Part shown: positions 12,906 through 51,693 of the stretch, in pieces
Layout of the letters: each line of letters opens with the position of its first letter
How positions within the stretch are numbered: position 1 is the stretch's first letter
Source of the DNA: a virus
Reading direction: 5' to 3' (one strand)
DNA length: 58,296 nt
IMG/VR virus record: IMGVR_UViG_3300029240_000011
Notes under the pieces: generated by a model
Databases searched by the model: none
What the model was told of the DNA's origin: nothing
The model's input: the letters and a program-made list of their open reading frames with translations, nothing else
Position numbers and translations under genes: made by a program

Positions 12906-13131
12906 GTATATACCGCCTTTCTAAAATGTTATTTTCACCTTATATGTTGACCCAGGGCAGGGGAGTAAGGTGGCACCTCCCTTTTCGGCCCGTCGGCCTA
13001 TCCCTGGCGTTCAACCAATGTTGTGAGAGACAGCGATATCCGTTTGCCTCTCAAATGGTAGATTCTAAATCAAAATCTCCGCTATCCATATATTCGGTTG
13101 TCAAGGTACAATTTATTGGAATGGATGGAAA

Positions 13132-22263: not shown

Positions 22264-22337
22264 TGGAGCAGCGCACGGGTCTTGAACCCGTACCATCAGC
22301 TTTGAAAGCTGGTATGCGCCAATTACACCAGCGCTGC
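22264..22337 (-). tRNA. tRNA with anticodon UCA (opal suppressor type), CCA encoded
   Basis: Hand-folded cloverleaf: 7/7 acceptor pairs, 5/5 T stem with loop TTCAAGA, 4-bp D stem with GG in the loop, anticodon loop TT-TCA-AA, 4-nt variable loop, discriminator T. Confidence 0.8.
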
Positions 22338-22714: not shown

Positions 22715-24337
22715 TTAAAACGGGCGTCGGAATACCTCCACCTTGTTCCCTTCTAGTTGCTGGACATACTCAGCAAACATTGCCAAAGCATCAGGAACAT
22801 CGTCATGTTTATTTTTACCTGCCATCGTATACCCGCAAAGGAAGTTGAGCATCCTTCGATATTCCTTGCCCTTCTTTATGACAGAGTTGTCTTTGAACAG
22901 CACATGGTCTTTCACCCACGGCGAGTTCACTATGATTTTTGTTTCCTTTTGCTGTGTCGTATATTTTGTGGTGATTTTCGCTATACCGCCAGCTTCTTTA
23001 ACTTCTTTCTGAACTTTTTCTGCTACTTTCCCACCAGCGCTGTTGCTTTCAAACTGGCCCATTTGAGCCTTATGCTGAAGGAGCTTTGACACCAGCCGCG
23101 CCTCTACAACCTCTGGATTGCTGTTGTCACATACCACGTCTTCGCAATAGAAGTCATTTCCGTACTGATAGCAAATTGGCATGACGCAGTAGTCAGTTCC
23201 CTTGTCTTTCGTGTCGCAAACGAACAGAATAGCGTCTGGCTTACCATCAGGAAGCTCAAAGTAGCGCCGTAGCTCATCTTCGTTGTAGAGCTGCCCTTCA
23301 CGCTCGATGGGTTGCGTCATGTAAAGTGCTCTCCATGATGCATCATCCATGACATCTCTCTGATTGTGATAGAATGCCGTGGTAAACCCAAGCCCATACG
23401 GATAATCAAAATTACTCTCATCGTTTTCATCCAGAGCAGGTAGGTGGATAAACTCTGCCAGTGGGTCTTCTGCATGGGCTAGTTCAAGTCGGTCAATGGG
23501 GTCATGCAGCGTCCATGGAGTTTGGACAAGGAGCTGGACGCAATCGCCAATCATTCTTTGCATCAGATCGGTATAATACTGTTGCCAGAGTTTATCCATC
23601 CGTTCTTTGCTCATTGCAGATTCAATATCAGGTACAAGGTCATCTGCTACCAGAAGATTAGAGGCACGAACTTTGCCCGCGTTACCAGATCCAATGGACG
23701 AAAACTCAAAGGTCTCAAACCGCTTTCGTTTTCCAAGATCAATTCGCATGTCCTGGGCGTTTGTTTTGCAAACTTGAGCAGATGGAAAAATATCTTTCCA
23801 CAAATACTCCCCTTTGGGGTCTAACATCCGCCCAACTTCTTCATAAGCCCCACGTAGGAATGAGTTTGAGTGCGAACCCATCAGAATGCTTAAATCTGGA
23901 TTCTTTAACCCCTCCATCACCATGAACATCAATTCAATGGTGGTCTTCCCGACGCCTGGGGGAGCCATAACACCCAAAATGCGTATCTTCCGTTCAGATA
24001 GCCGCTGCATGGCCTTGACAACAGGAAGTAGCTGCTTTCTGCGTGGCATATAAAACTTCTTTTTCGGCTCTCTATCCCACTCAGCATATCTTATCGCCGC
24101 ATCAAAATCATACGGTGCATCAAACAGCAGACTTCGCTTATTCAGATCAAACATCTTGAAGCTGTTCTGCTCTTTGGCATATTTGGCCGATAGGCGGCGG
24201 ACTTCCTTATTAACGCTGTGGGCTTCTTCAAAATTTTCGGATTCATACAATCTACATACATCAAACAAATCTTGCAACGCAGAGGCATCAGATAGATCTC
24301 TCTCTCTTGCTTTCTTAATCAGTTCATCAAGCTTCAC
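22715..24337 (-). CDS. terL: terminase large subunit
   Basis: 540 aa. Walker A MAPPGVGKTT. LLVADDLV Walker B-like motif. GTG start with a GGAGG SD. Confidence 0.85.
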   Translation of the reverse strand: MKLDELIKKARERDLSDASALQDLFDVCRLYESENFEEAHSVNKEVRRLSAKYAKEQNSFKMFDLNKRSLLFDAPYDFDAAIRYAEWDREPKKKFYMPRRKQLLPVVKAMQRLSERKIRILGVMAPPGVGKTTIELMFMVMEGLKNPDLSILMGSHSNSFLRGAYEEVGRMLDPKGEYLWKDIFPSAQVCKTNAQDMRIDLGKRKRFETFEFSSIGSGNAGKVRASNLLVADDLVPDIESAMSKERMDKLWQQYYTDLMQRMIGDCVQLLVQTPWTLHDPIDRLELAHAEDPLAEFIHLPALDENDESNFDYPYGLGFTTAFYHNQRDVMDDASWRALYMTQPIEREGQLYNEDELRRYFELPDGKPDAILFVCDTKDKGTDYCVMPICYQYGNDFYCEDVVCDNSNPEVVEARLVSKLLQHKAQMGQFESNSAGGKVAEKVQKEVKEAGGIAKITTKYTTQQKETKIIVNSPWVKDHVLFKDNSVIKKGKEYRRMLNFLCGYTMAGKNKHDDVPDALAMFAEYVQQLEGNKVEVFRRPF

Positions 24338-28996: not shown

Positions 28997-29224
28997 TCAT
29001 TTGTTGCGGGCCAGGTATAGGACGGCGCAGCGGGGGCCGTCGCACTCCCCGCCGATATACTCCACGCGGGGCGGCTCTCCATCGGCCTGACACTTAATCA
29101 CGCCAACTTTCAGCGCTGCGGCCAGATCCGGCTCCGGGTCATATTTGTTATAGTTGCACAAATCGCCAAAGTGTTTTCCCGAGAATTTGCGATACCCGCT
29201 TGTGCAATTTACTGGTGATAGTCG
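28997..29224 (-). other. start-less 75-codon ORF in frame with TerS, directly after its TGA stop
   Basis: Codon-by-codon reading: TGA then RLSPVNCTSGYRKFSGKHFGDLCNYNKYDPEPDLAAALKVGVIKCQADGEPPRVEYIGGECDGPRCAVLYLARNK then TGA. No ATG/GTG/TTG lies near its 5' end in this frame. Confidence 0.4.
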
Positions 29225-29752
29225 TCACTCCTCCACCACCACAGACCCGGCGATCCGCTCTTCAAGCTGTTTCTGGTCTGGAGAGTCGCCGAGGGGCTGA
29301 TTCGGGGTGAGAACCAGGTCTTGAACATCTTTCATGCCATAGAAGTTCTTAGACCTAAAAATATACGTAGTCTCCGGGATTTTGCGTCCAAGCACCAATT
29401 CTGCGTCGATATTTGATAAAATTTGTTTCGCTTTTTTTATCATGTTCGACCTCGCGGAACTGCATCCATTCCCATTTTCCCATTCCCAAACAGTAGACCG
29501 AACAGCGCCCAATGCAAGGCACATCTTCTCAACGGTAGGGATTTCCCCGGTTCTTCCACACTCTGCAAAGAACTCATTCAGTCTGTCTGCACACTCATCA
29601 TCAGACTTAACAATCTGCTTATTAAACCACTTGTAAGAGTTCCTGACGATTTGAGCGATTTCTTCTTTCTTTGCTGTGGTAGTCGCTTCAATGGAGGCTG
29701 ACTTCGACCCTCTTTTCCTGACGGGCTGTGTCATAGTCACATCCTGCTCCAT
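29225..29752 (-). CDS. terS: terminase small subunit
   Basis: ...FFAECGRTGEIPTVEKMCLALGAVRSTVWEWENG...TYIFRSKNFYGMKD, the TerS HTH + oligomerisation pattern. Start at MEQDV (the track ORF is longer). Confidence 0.7.
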   Translation of the reverse strand: MEQDVTMTQPVRKRGSKSASIEATTTAKKEEIAQIVRNSYKWFNKQIVKSDDECADRLNEFFAECGRTGEIPTVEKMCLALGAVRSTVWEWENGNGCSSARSNMIKKAKQILSNIDAELVLGRKIPETTYIFRSKNFYGMKDVQDLVLTPNQPLGDSPDQKQLEERIAGSVVVEE

Positions 29753-29759
29753 AGTCGCA

Positions 29760-29978
29760 TCATTCTTGCTCAGAGTTGTCACCTCCGTTATCTTTTCTCC
29801 AAATCCATTTTGCTTTTCTGCGAACAGAAACGACCTCACCGTTTTGACAATAAATTACATCATCATCAGACTTATATCTCTTTCCGTATGCCCAATTTTC
29901 AATCTGGACTCCAAATGTATGCGGTACTCCGATATGTGAAAGTTGTTTCCTTATGTCTTTGGGCAAGATAAATCCCAT
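29760..29978 (-). CDS. hypothetical protein (72 aa)
   Basis: Track ORF. Confidence 0.5.
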   Translation of the reverse strand: MGFILPKDIRKQLSHIGVPHTFGVQIENWAYGKRYKSDDDVIYCQNGEVVSVRRKAKWIWRKDNGGDNSEQE

Positions 29979-34376: not shown

Positions 34377-34945
34377 GGCTGGGCCTCCTCTTTCAGGCGA
34401 ACCGGCATAACCATCTTAATGTCCTCCTTGTTGGTGCGGAGAAGAATAGGCTCTACATTACTGCGAAACTCCAAAATAACGGGCTGTCTGAAGCTCTCTC
34501 CAGCAGATACTTTTGCTGCCTGCAAAGCTGCCAGAAGGTAATTTCCATTGAAGCCAATCCGGTATTTTACCTCACTTGTCGGAATCGCCTTTTCCCACTC
34601 AAATCCGCTGTCTTGTGGCTGGGTATATCCGAACGAGAATCCACAGCATCGAATTACAGCCTCTTTTCCGTCCTCGGTCAGAGAGATGGTTGCATACTGT
34701 TTGCTCGGAAGTTTGGTATTGCTCTTGATGAACGCCACAAAATCCTCGTCGCAATCGCTGATAATGGAATGTTCCACAGACATCCGATATCCGTCAACAG
34801 CCATAGCCACAACTTGACTGTCTGCCGCATGAAACTCCAGCTTTATGTATTGGTTGCAAGGGCGGTGGTCACTATTACCCACAAAAGACTTGGTGGCCGC
34901 AATCAGGCGGTTCAAGTCGTTAGTGTAAATCTTTGCCGACTTCAT
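34373..34945 (-). CDS. DNA polymerase III beta-clamp-like protein (short form)
   Basis: IGFNGNYLLAALQAAK and C-terminal VMPVRL resemble DnaN domain III. Confidence 0.55.
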   Translation of the reverse strand: MKSAKIYTNDLNRLIAATKSFVGNSDHRPCNQYIKLEFHAADSQVVAMAVDGYRMSVEHSIISDCDEDFVAFIKSNTKLPSKQYATISLTEDGKEAVIRCCGFSFGYTQPQDSGFEWEKAIPTSEVKYRIGFNGNYLLAALQAAKVSAGESFRQPVILEFRSNVEPILLRTNKEDIKMVMPVRLKEEAQP

Positions 34946-35252
34946 GTGTTTTCCTCCATTTTTTAATCTCTTCCGCGCTCAGAATCAGCGCACGGGTGTT
35001 CCATTCCTCAATAGCTGCTCTGTCTACATCTTGCCACCGTTCCATTGGAAGCTGCCTATGCGTAACAGTCCGGACTCCACATTTTTTGCATTGCACTACC
35101 GCTTGTCGGCAATGCGCGATCTGACGGCTTGGAAACCCCTTCTTGAACTTAGCTTCGCTGCCACAGCACGGACACGGCACCAGCACCCCCGCCTTCGTCA
35201 GCCGCTTCGCCGCCTCGTGGTCACCCAGAAGGGCGCGCTTTATGTCATCCAT
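34920..35252 (-). CDS. Lar-family restriction-alleviation-like protein
   Basis: CPCCGSEAKF...CKKCG...AIEEWNTR. GGGGAGG SD before ATG 35252. Confidence 0.6.
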   Translation of the reverse strand: MDDIKRALLGDHEAAKRLTKAGVLVPCPCCGSEAKFKKGFPSRQIAHCRQAVVQCKKCGVRTVTHRQLPMERWQDVDRAAIEEWNTRALILSAEEIKKWRKTHEVGKDLH

Positions 35253-35844
35253 TGCAAATTCCTCCCCATTGTTCTGCCATCGCCTGCGCCAATCCATGGA
35301 ATGTCTTAGCCCTATTTTTCTGCCGGTCTTTTCCGCCCTTCATGAACCATGTCCCGGCCTCATGGCATCCGCATTTCGGGTCTACTATGTTTGTCGGTTC
35401 CAGTGGTGGCAGTCCTCTAAGCCACAGGCGAGTCTTTTTCTGGACCGGGTGTCCGAACATCCACGGCTGTACCTCCTGGGTGTGTGGCGGCATTTCGTAA
35501 ATTCTGCTGGATACTGGGTTCTCCACGCATATGTGCGGACAGTCCGCATTAAGGAATTTCAAGAAAAACTCCTTTGCTTCCAGACCCATATGGTATCGTT
35601 CCTGGTTGAGAACGCCCCCCCTGAACAGGTGCTTTGCTCCGGCGTTTGACAGGTATGTACAGGGCGGAAACGCCAGAATCATATCCCACCGCAGCTTCAG
35701 CATTTCCAGCGCATCACATTGGAGATGCCATTCCGGATGCCCGCCGCTACACGGCTCAATGTCACAACTGTACGCCTCATGGCCCAACGCGCGGAATGCT
35801 TTGCAGACCTCCTGCGATTCTTCGCAGGCAACTAAAACTCTCAT
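35245..35844 (-). CDS. short DNA cytosine-methyltransferase-like protein
   Basis: VLVACEESQEVCKAFRALGHEAYSCDI...ILAFPPCTYLSNAG pattern. Confidence 0.55.
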   Translation of the reverse strand: MRVLVACEESQEVCKAFRALGHEAYSCDIEPCSGGHPEWHLQCDALEMLKLRWDMILAFPPCTYLSNAGAKHLFRGGVLNQERYHMGLEAKEFFLKFLNADCPHICVENPVSSRIYEMPPHTQEVQPWMFGHPVQKKTRLWLRGLPPLEPTNIVDPKCGCHEAGTWFMKGGKDRQKNRAKTFHGLAQAMAEQWGGICNG

Positions 35845-35854
35845 GTTTCTCCCC

Positions 35855-36082
35855 TCACCAATACCGCGTCTTGCTCTTGAGGCCGTTCACATACTTCGCT
35901 TTTTTCCTGACTTTGTTGAAATGGTCCGCATAGTACCGATCATGGCGGGCAAGGGACGCTTGGATCTGCAGTTCATTCCTTTTCGTCAACGCATCCCGCT
36001 CCAACCGGTATTCCGGGCATGCGCTATGACATCCCACCGAACGTTTTTCACAGCCTTTGCAGCAGTTGATTTTTATCCATAC
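35855..36082 (-). other. start-less 75-codon Cys-rich ORF in frame with the methylase gene, directly after its TGA stop
   Basis: TGA then VWIKINCCKGCEKRSVGCHSACPEYRLERDAL...TRYW. The nearest ATG (36080) is in the adjacent frame and is separated from the long frame by an A5 run. Confidence 0.45.
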
Positions 36083-36856
36083 TCATAATTCGATCTCCAT
36101 CTGCATTTTCTCTTCAAACAGCGGAGCAAGCATCTGTTTCTTTGCCGAATCGTAAAATTTTTTATCCACTTCAAACCCATAAGAATTTCGCCCCAATTCA
36201 TAAGCAGCCCGAAGTGTAGAGCCGCTCCCAGCGCATGGGTCAATCACTATATCTCCCAAATCTGTAAAAACTTCGATTAACCGCTTCAGCAATCCAACAG
36301 GCTTTTGGGTCGGATGGATTTTTGGGTAATCCCCGGAACTGTCCCTGCGCCATTCAAACCAATTGAATACCATATGTCCGTTATTACGGAATTTCGGAAG
36401 TTTGTTTCGATACAACACTACGGCAAACTCTGTGGCGCCAACGATCTTCATATTGGCTTTCAACACCTGCGAGGAGTAATTCTTGACAAAGAACAGAGGG
36501 TAGTTATGTAAAAAGCCATATCGCTTCCCGTAGTCAATCACCGTCTGCATCTGTTCAAATGCACAGAATACAATCATGGCCGGGGCTTGACCTTTTTCTT
36601 GTGGTTCTTTTTTCAAAAGTCGGTTACAGAAATGCATATATTCCGCAATTTTGAAATTTCCATCCGTGTGGAAGAAACTCTGCTTTGCCAGTTTGCTTTC
36701 CCCGTTTTTGTTATCTCCACCCTTATACCACATAGGGTTACTGGCATAGGCATTCGATCCGATGTTATACGGAATATCTGCAATCACCAGCTGCGCTTTG
36801 GGGATCCCATATCGCTTAAAATTCTGAAAATTATCATGATATAACTCACATTTCAC
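36083..36856 (-). CDS. DNA N6-adenine/N4-cytosine methyltransferase (beta class)
   Basis: VIADIPYNIG (DPPY-type) and IDPCAGSGSTLRAA (AdoMet motif). AAGGAG lies 9 nt before GTG 36856. Confidence 0.8.
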   Translation of the reverse strand: MKCELYHDNFQNFKRYGIPKAQLVIADIPYNIGSNAYASNPMWYKGGDNKNGESKLAKQSFFHTDGNFKIAEYMHFCNRLLKKEPQEKGQAPAMIVFCAFEQMQTVIDYGKRYGFLHNYPLFFVKNYSSQVLKANMKIVGATEFAVVLYRNKLPKFRNNGHMVFNWFEWRRDSSGDYPKIHPTQKPVGLLKRLIEVFTDLGDIVIDPCAGSGSTLRAAYELGRNSYGFEVDKKFYDSAKKQMLAPLFEEKMQMEIEL

Positions 36857-47277: not shown

Positions 47278-48351
47278 ATGTCAATGGAATGTGCAAAATG
47301 TAAAGCAACTTTGCCAAATGGTGCATTGTATTGTCCTATGTGTGGGAAAAAGCAGATCTCAGAAAAGAGAAAAGCTTTGAAGCGCGCCAACAGGACGGGC
47401 ACCGTCTATAAGCTGCAGGGGCGAAGAAAACGCCCCTGGGTGGCCGCGAAGAATAAAGTGATCATTGGATACTACGAGCGAAAAACGGACGCTTTGGAGG
47501 CTCTTGAGCACCTATCTGGGAAAGATCTGAGCGAGCGTTATAATATGACATTTTCAGAAGTTTTTCAGGGATGGCGTGAGGAACATTATAAAACTATTAC
47601 GAAGAGCGGTATAGCATCCTATAACATCGCCTTCAAGGTATTTGCACCGCTACACAATAGAAAATTTAGAGACTTACGTACTGCAGATTTCCAAGCAGAA
47701 ATAGACAAACACATTGGAAAATCTTACTCTACTTTGTCAAAACACAAACAACTCATTACTCAAATGTATCAATGGGCCATCCGGGAAGAAATATGCACAA
47801 CAAATTTCGCAAAGTTTGTCCAACTTCCAGAGAACAAGAAGAAAGAAAAAGAAATTTTTTCAGACGAAGAAATCAAAAAGCTTGAAGAAGACGGAAGCGA
47901 AGCAGCAAGGATCGTCCTCATGCTCTTGGCAACTGGTATGCGCATTGGGGAGCTATTTTCGCTTCCGCTAAAAGACTACCACGGAACATATGTCGTTGGA
48001 GGCTCTAAAACCGAAGCCGGCAGAAACCGGATCATACCAATTCGTCCAGAAGGTAGAGCACATTTCGAGTATTTTTCCCGGCAAGCAGATGGACCACTGC
48101 TACTTTCTGGATACACAGGCCAAAAGGTATATACTAATTATCGAAAGCGGGATTATTACCCACTGTTAGATAAGCTTGGAATTAAGCGCAAAACGCCTCA
48201 TGCAACCAGGCACACATACACATCCAGAGCAGTTAAAGAAGGTATGCCCCCAGAGATCCTTCAAAAAATTCTTGGCCATGCAGACTACTCTACCACGGCA
48301 AATGTTTATACCCACATCGATATTGAAACATTGGTGAAGTCTGTTGAATAA
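47278..48351 (+). CDS. int: tyrosine integrase with N-terminal zinc ribbon
   Basis: CAKCKA...CPMCG N-terminus. C-terminal ...HATRHTYTSRAV...LGHADYSTTANVYTH catalytic motifs. Confidence 0.9.
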   Translation: MSMECAKCKATLPNGALYCPMCGKKQISEKRKALKRANRTGTVYKLQGRRKRPWVAAKNKVIIGYYERKTDALEALEHLSGKDLSERYNMTFSEVFQGWREEHYKTITKSGIASYNIAFKVFAPLHNRKFRDLRTADFQAEIDKHIGKSYSTLSKHKQLITQMYQWAIREEICTTNFAKFVQLPENKKKEKEIFSDEEIKKLEEDGSEAARIVLMLLATGMRIGELFSLPLKDYHGTYVVGGSKTEAGRNRIIPIRPEGRAHFEYFSRQADGPLLLSGYTGQKVYTNYRKRDYYPLLDKLGIKRKTPHATRHTYTSRAVKEGMPPEILQKILGHADYSTTANVYTHIDIETLVKSVE

Positions 48352-51547: not shown

Positions 51548-51693
51548 TTGAACACGTCCTTATGTAAAAAATAAGGAGGATCGTGAGGAGGGTGGCGACG
51601 TGTACCAACCCTAAATCCCCACGTCCTCCATGCCTATATTGTCGCAGAAAAATACCCCGGCTGGGGTTGATCCCAGTCGGGGTTATGTATGAT

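Follow-up and report, generated by a model that had tools for sequence, protein, structure and literature searches.

A start-less cysteine-rich frame behind the stop codon of a phage DNA methylase gene is probably a frameshift allele of a small stand-alone gene

In a phage genome that carries a tRNA with the anticodon UCA, the TGA stop codon of a DNA methylase gene is followed in the same frame by an open, Cys-rich and apparently start-less stretch. Is this stretch translated by readthrough or another recoding event, from a non-AUG start, or is it a gene disrupted by an insertion or deletion? The window analyzed here is the whole 58,296-nt sequence of IMG/VR virus record IMGVR_UViG_3300029240_000011, a temperate siphovirus-like phage or prophage from the human gut. 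Its structural genes include an SPP1-type portal and an E-type major capsid protein, and two further genes serve as landmarks:

47278-48351 (+), integrase
22715-24337 (-), large terminase

Two RNA families were also matched in the window: RAGATH-31 over its full length at 51575-51629 (-), with 75.1 bits against a gathering score of 71.8, and int-alpA at 12938-13008 (-), with 47.5 bits against a gathering score of 35.8, the latter in the late-gene region and distant from the integrase.

The locus in question lies within 34920-36856 (-), where anti-restriction-type genes are packed, namely the N6/N4 methyltransferase gene, the small Zn-knuckle gene and two further genes. The features are as follows:

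36083-36856 (-), N6/N4 DNA methyltransferase (methylase) gene of 257 codons, with the GTG start 36856 behind AGGAGA and the TGA stop 36085-36083
36095-36098 (-), GGAG Shine-Dalgarno (SD) sequence, 8 nt 5′ of ATG 36086 and inside the methylase 3′ end
36048-36086 (-), mini-ORF from the conserved start, ATG AGT ATG GAT AAA AAT CAA CTG CTG CAA AGG CTG TGA, encoding MSMDKNQLLQRL before the stop
36070-36074 (-), run of five A residues (A5) in codons 5-6 of the small gene, one A above the run of four (A4) in relatives, a frameshifting insertion
35855-36073 (-), main part of the small Zn-knuckle gene, reading (K)INCCKGCEKRSVGCHSACPEY...KTRYW up to its stop; it has lost the frame of its own start and shares that of the methylase
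35245-35844 (-), phrog_757 'DNA methyltransferase', with no Pfam match
34920-35297 (-), Lar-like restriction-alleviation protein

The mechanical ORF list puts the methylase start at ATG 36916, whereas we prefer GTG 36856, which is most likely the start judging from the relatives L001 and L040, where the gene is called as 257 aa. Pfam profile PF01555 matched the methylase with E=5.8e-26 and 92.2 bits (cut-off 26.7); the match takes in positions 2-221 of the 221 in the profile and stops 17 residues short of the TGA. Matches to phrog_67 (E=2.4e-48) and PADLOC MTase_II were obtained as well. As the PF01555 profile is matched over its whole length, the methylase is complete at its own TGA and needs no extension.

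The earlier note had described the TGA at 36085-36083 as followed by open sequence of the same frame that runs into the ORF 35855..36037 with a CxxC motif, and this description holds: the methylase frame stays open for 75 codons, VWIKINCCKGCEKRSVGCHSACPEY...KTRYW, up to the stop TGA 35857-35855. The stretch VWIKINCCKGCEKRS runs in frame from the methylase stop into the GTG-started 60-codon ORF 36037..35855, and these last 60 codons, from GTG 36037, are all that the mechanical ORF list holds of the Cys-rich frame. ATG 36080 was also correctly reported to be off-frame and to read MDKNQLLQRL before a stop, but it had been taken for the only ATG, which is wrong. The stretch contains two ATGs in the same frame, 36086-36084 and 36080-36078, the former of which overlaps the methylase stop as ATGA. 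The GGAG in front of it is invariant in 33 of 33 related loci, in which the 45 nt preceding the ATG were examined, and ATG 36086 corresponds to the start in use among relatives. From this ATG, translation in the window ends at TGA 36050-36048, and the other contigs with A5 give the identical translation.

Alignment of the junction (A1) placed the window sequence GATAAAAATC against GATAAAATC or GTGAAAATC of the relatives; the flanks are identical, and the window has one extra A. The relatives encode MSMDKINCCKGCEKRSVGCHSACPEY... from the A4 run, in agreement with the suggestion of the earlier note that one A fewer would give an N-terminus of the MDKINCCKGC type. When the unambiguous part of the ORF was used as the query, the closest homologues P0001-P0004 were 75-76 aa long and started with MSMDKINCC, MSMVKINCC or MVSKINCC; homologue N-termini read MSMDKINCCKGC..., MSMVKINCC..., MSMGKINCC... 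or MVSKINCC.... The intact protein P0049 differs from the repaired ORF of the window by a single residue, A59V, and tblastn with P0049 residues 5-76 against the window gave 98.6% identity. No second copy of the small gene was found in the window by tblastn with P0049.

An exhaustive HMMER scan of 1.84 billion representative proteins yielded 41 relatives at E<=1e-3, in all of which the Cys motif is placed 1-10 residues from the N-terminus. The search of homologue starts, which the earlier note had itself set beforehand as the test against readthrough, went against that proposal: each of the 41 family representatives is a protein in its own right, 52-92 aa long, and the exact P0049 is on record, intact, in 934 blocks of the public collection. 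No fusion to a larger protein was found among the 41 relatives, although gene callers would not predict a fusion across TGA. The 90%-identity clusters of P0005 and P0001 include the unrelated P0048 (474 aa, helicase-like) and P0050 (132 aa); these were considered as Zn-knuckle fusions and rejected as clustering artefacts. In the family alignment (A2), C9, C12, C19, H20 and C23 are invariant and R15 and G18 nearly invariant, defining the motif CxxC-x6-CHxxC. The window ORF INCCKGCEKRSVGCHSAC has all five invariant residues as well as R15 and G18. Genes of the family comprise 52-92 codons, and each has a start of its own that precedes the motif by 1-10 codons; the window locus lacks such a start, ATG 36086 being out of frame through the extra A. 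These comparisons show that the open Cys-rich frame is a conserved protein-coding gene and not a chance feature, and that the window locus is a frameshifted allele of a member of this small-protein family.

The AlphaFold model built on the family alignment (mean pLDDT 86) predicts a short N-terminal knuckle followed by a single long helix over residues 24-74. No significant match to the small protein was found by sequence profile in Pfam, PHROG, PADLOC or PDB, the lone Pfam match being a sub-threshold PRKCSH-like one. Foldseek retrieved no solved fold and matched only uncharacterised small gut-phage proteins, with E of 0.02 or worse. Neither megablast of the locus nor tblastn of the protein gave a match in GenBank phages, and neither the exact junction pattern nor the degenerate motif pattern was matched in representative bacterial genomes. 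The neighbourhood of the gene contains two methyltransferase-like genes, the Lar-like restriction-alleviation gene, a resolvase, a DnaB-like helicase and an HTH protein, and our working guess, judged from gene position alone, is a small metal-binding early protein. Lar-like restriction-alleviation proteins (PF14354) offer a parallel, in that here too a small Cys-rich protein is encoded among DNA methyltransferase genes in the early region, near a Lar-like gene. The family nevertheless differs from Lar in its CxxC-x6-CHxxC motif and single long helix, and kinship with the Lar-like protein of the window was not detected by hhalign (probability 1.4%).

We then surveyed the alleles by a pattern scan of public collections that accepted either A4 or A5. 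All six viral contigs had A4, as did 17 of the 20 metagenome contigs, while the remaining three had A5. In total, A4 was found in 23 contigs (21 distinct) and A5 in three, which makes 24 distinct contigs once two duplicates were removed and an A5 frequency of about 12% (3/24). The A5 contigs come from different assemblies:

L016, OHAD01007095
L017, UEPV01008327
L028, ERZ772858

The window is 99.9% identical to L028 over 1212 nt and 100% identical to L017 over 435 nt, and these three sequences have in common a synonymous SNP that occurs in no A4 allele. L016 carries A5 on a clearly different downstream haplotype. None of the four A5 sequences, not even the divergent L016, shows a disruption of the ORF 3′ of the insertion; this carries no evidential weight, since a selection comparison over 75 codons with a handful of substitutions has no statistical power. 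The A5 of the window is supported indirectly, in that the same run recurs in three other independent assemblies, and it appears to be a real, inherited and recombining allele that circulates in gut phages, and not a one-off assembly error.

Assembly quality differs among the related loci. Unlike all other relatives, L019 (VOFB01001470.1) and L039 (a Logan ERR3201946 contig, the source of P0006) are rich in 1-nt indels and broken genes, and their frameshifts, for instance the +A that L019 has close to the small gene's 3′ end, were discounted as biology. The numerous 1-nt indels in the alignment across 31-43 kb all derive from this one poor assembly, L019. The window has no private 1-nt indel besides the extra A in that region, in which up to 18 relatives were aligned. 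A nonsense codon in the small gene (RY*KD) was seen in L025.

The small gene travels with a short leader as part of a mosaic:

35847-36139 (-), mosaic cassette common to relatives, comprising 53 nt of upstream sequence with the SD and the small gene

Similarity to most relatives begins at 36139 and ends at 35855 or 35847 (blastn boundaries q928-q1212/1220, 27 loci). P0049 is encoded by a separate 76-codon gene in eight of eight long contigs examined, and the phage backbones bearing it differ in terminases and portals. The upstream neighbour of the intact gene also varies among at least three different genes: the methylase with a 4-nt overlap (L040), in most relatives an unrelated DUF7576-like gene that is read in another frame and ends 27 nt before the ATG, or a 51-codon ORF (51 aa), behind which the cassette lies in L047. 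The 53-nt leader codes for the methylase C-terminus (...APLFEEKMQMEIEL and stop) and, in most relatives, in another frame for the DUF7576-like C-terminus (...TDACSAV and stop). A recombination boundary falls within the methylase 3′ end, at 36086-36139 (-) of the window and 449-505 of L017.

This arrangement accounts for the layout in the window. In the A4 relatives, the small gene is out of frame with the upstream gene; where the two overlap, their frames differ because the ATG overlaps the upstream stop as ATGA, and a +1 insertion after such an overlap therefore shifts the rest of the gene into the frame of the upstream gene. L017 carries A5 in the DUF7576-like context, where the gene before it is read in another frame and nothing but a 16-codon remnant precedes it in frame. 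As A5 occurs in L017 without an in-frame upstream gene, the in-frame fusion is incidental.

The tRNA that gave rise to the readthrough idea is indeed encoded, as the earlier note had stated:

22264-22337 (-), tRNA of 74 nt that has the anticodon UCA, a gene-encoded CCA end and a discriminator U (ARAGORN; Rfam tRNA model, 52.2 bits)

An exact 38-mer of tRNA(UCA) was found in five IMG/VR contigs, and in four of these (117894, 094095, 118325 and 097529) the small gene is of the intact A4 type, so that possession of the tRNA is associated with the ordinary gene in its separate frame. In the window, TGA ends 40 of 67 minus-strand ORFs (about 60%, from a crude gene list) and is the commonest stop. 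In-frame TGA is absent from the large genes, namely a tape-measure-size ORF of 1483 aa, the terminase, the portal and the capsid gene. Genome-wide TGA recoding was rejected on these two grounds. A stop followed by at least 50 open in-frame codons occurs by chance in dozens of cases in the window.

In gut phages with stop codon recoding, suppressor tRNAs of the phage let TGA be read as Trp or TAG as Gln; the recoded phages carry in-frame TGAs in late genes, their standard-code relatives are depleted of TGA stops, and a TGA suppressor tRNA has also been acquired by some phages that use the standard code (Borges et al., bioRxiv 10.1101/2021.08.26.457843). The window resembles these in being a human-gut phage that encodes a UGA-reading tRNA. 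In contrast to them, TGA is its commonest stop and its large late genes have no in-frame TGA, and the site lies in the early/replication region in an in-frame layout that is not conserved. We regard tRNA(UCA) as the context of the readthrough idea, its action on the methylase stop being putative.

The earlier note had counted the locus as the second TGA followed by a start-less frame. Its other case is probably 28999-29224 (-), which follows the small terminase gene 29225-29839. Among the fetched loci, the only homologue of this stretch was L011 6859-7278, a separate GTG-started Cys-rich gene of 139 codons in another frame, of which the window retains the C-terminal ~47 residues. The stretch seems to have been left by a deletion, or to be a shortened gene that starts at TTG, rather than to be a readthrough extension, and lends no support to recoding.

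How, if at all, could the Cys-rich frame be expressed in the window? In the readthrough model, the phage tRNA(UCA) decodes the methylase stop, and a methylase-Zn-knuckle fusion of ~333 aa is the functional product of A5. The methylase and Cys-rich frames do align in the window, L016 and L028 share the methylase-plus-A5 arrangement, and the tRNA is well formed and exactly conserved in related phages. However, the alignment of frames follows automatically from a +1 insertion after the ATGA overlap; it is missing in 21 of the 24 distinct related contigs, in all four tRNA(UCA) relatives of known allele and in L017 despite its A5. No fused homologue exists among the 1.84 billion representatives, the genome is not TGA-recoded, and the companion site looks like the remnant of a separate gene. 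We therefore consider readthrough very unlikely. Initiation at ATA or ATC (36076 or 36070) or at GTG 36037 is scarcely credible. The GTG heads the mechanical 60-codon ORF just 3′ of the mini-ORF stop 36050-36048, so that ribosomes might re-initiate 11 nt past this stop; it has no SD, however, its product would be devoid of C9 and C12, two of the five invariant residues, and the exact 60-aa product is not on record in the public collection. ATA and ATC, which the earlier note had proposed, lie ~18 and ~24 nt from the GGAG, too far for either to be served by it.

Two further explanations would leave an intact protein in place. A leaky or programmed +1 frameshift on A-AAA-A, in which tRNA-Lys re-pairs one base on and AUC becomes the next codon, would restore MSMDK-INCC.... 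The re-pairing would be perfect (GAU AAA AAU; AAA to AAA), the product is identical to the A4 protein, and A5 is maintained in several contexts together with an undamaged ORF behind it. Programmed frameshifting of the prfB type likewise involves a P-site codon that re-pairs at +1, here AAA-A, and the shifted product would be full-length. Unlike prfB, however, the window site has neither a slow or stop codon in the A site, AAU being neither a stop nor an evident rare codon, nor an SD-like stimulator at the right distance upstream or any other stimulatory element that we could see. Since A5 and A4 alleles do not differ in their flanks, no element has co-evolved with the shift; moreover, programmed shifts are conserved among homologues, whereas here the shifted state is found in a minority. 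On a run of 5 nt of A, slippage reaches at most the percent level. Frameshifting is thus unlikely, and an assembly or sequencing error, by which the real phage would have A4 and an ordinary intact gene, is improbable to the same degree. The difference is a single base in a homopolymer, and L019, full of 1-nt indels, demonstrates that error-prone assemblies exist in this phage group. But identical A5 runs were obtained in three assemblies from different data sets and are linked to a haplotype-specific SNP, the similarity to L028 and L017 is nearly or fully complete, and the window is free of other private 1-nt indels across 31-43 kb. Of the indel proposed in the earlier note, the extra A relative to the A4 relatives stands, while its origin in the assembly is unlikely.

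The locus is most probably a tolerated frameshift allele of a dispensable accessory gene, from which the Zn-knuckle protein has been lost or nearly so. The identity of the gene, the start used by its relatives, the one-base difference and the recurrence of A5 are shown by the comparisons above. The intact gene of 76 codons is translated from its own ATG, which overlaps the upstream stop (ATGA), with GGAG 8 nt before it. In the window, insertion of a single A into the A4 run at codons 5-6 has produced A5 at 36074-36070. Ribosomes that start at the conserved ATG would then make the 12-residue peptide MSMDKNQLLQRL and terminate, and the Zn-knuckle protein would be absent or present in traces only. 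The TGA followed by an in-frame start-less ORF is an arithmetical by-product, not a design. We infer that the Zn-knuckle protein is no longer expressed from A5 alleles and that the phage can do without the gene.

As in other frameshift or null alleles that arise from homopolymer indels, the extra base lies in an A4 run soon after the start, a stop is reached at 12 codons, the ORF is still recognisable, and A5 segregates beside the intact allele in related genomes. What differs is that A5 is fairly frequent (3 of 24 distinct contigs) and occurs in three sequence contexts, beyond a private mutation. A frequency of ~12% is fairly high for a null allele and speaks against this reading; the intact ORF downstream of the insertion would also suit continued expression, but the substitutions are too few to weigh. 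Unlike phase-variation tracts of the classical type, the A run here is too short. It is distinctly unlikely that A5 is rescued in tRNA(UCA) phages, be it that UGA suppression extends the methylase by the Zn-knuckle or that +1 slippage on A-AAA-A yields the native protein. If such a rescue were true, the A4/A5 polymorphism would act as a switch, with the protein free in one state and, in the other, tethered to the methylase or made at low dose.

The locus is an ordinary feature. It is nonetheless of use for annotation, in which it is best labelled a 76-aa gene in frameshifted form rather than a readthrough extension or a GTG-started gene of 60 aa, and it exemplifies a general trap, namely that an ATGA overlap combined with any +1 insertion creates a stop followed by an in-frame start-less ORF. 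This lineage keeps tRNA(UCA), though it uses the standard code with TGA as the commonest stop. The small CxxC-x6-CHxxC protein is uncharacterised and yet very widespread in human-gut temperate phages, being present on several backbones, and its A5 form is most likely a loss-of-function allele that is tolerated in gut phage populations.
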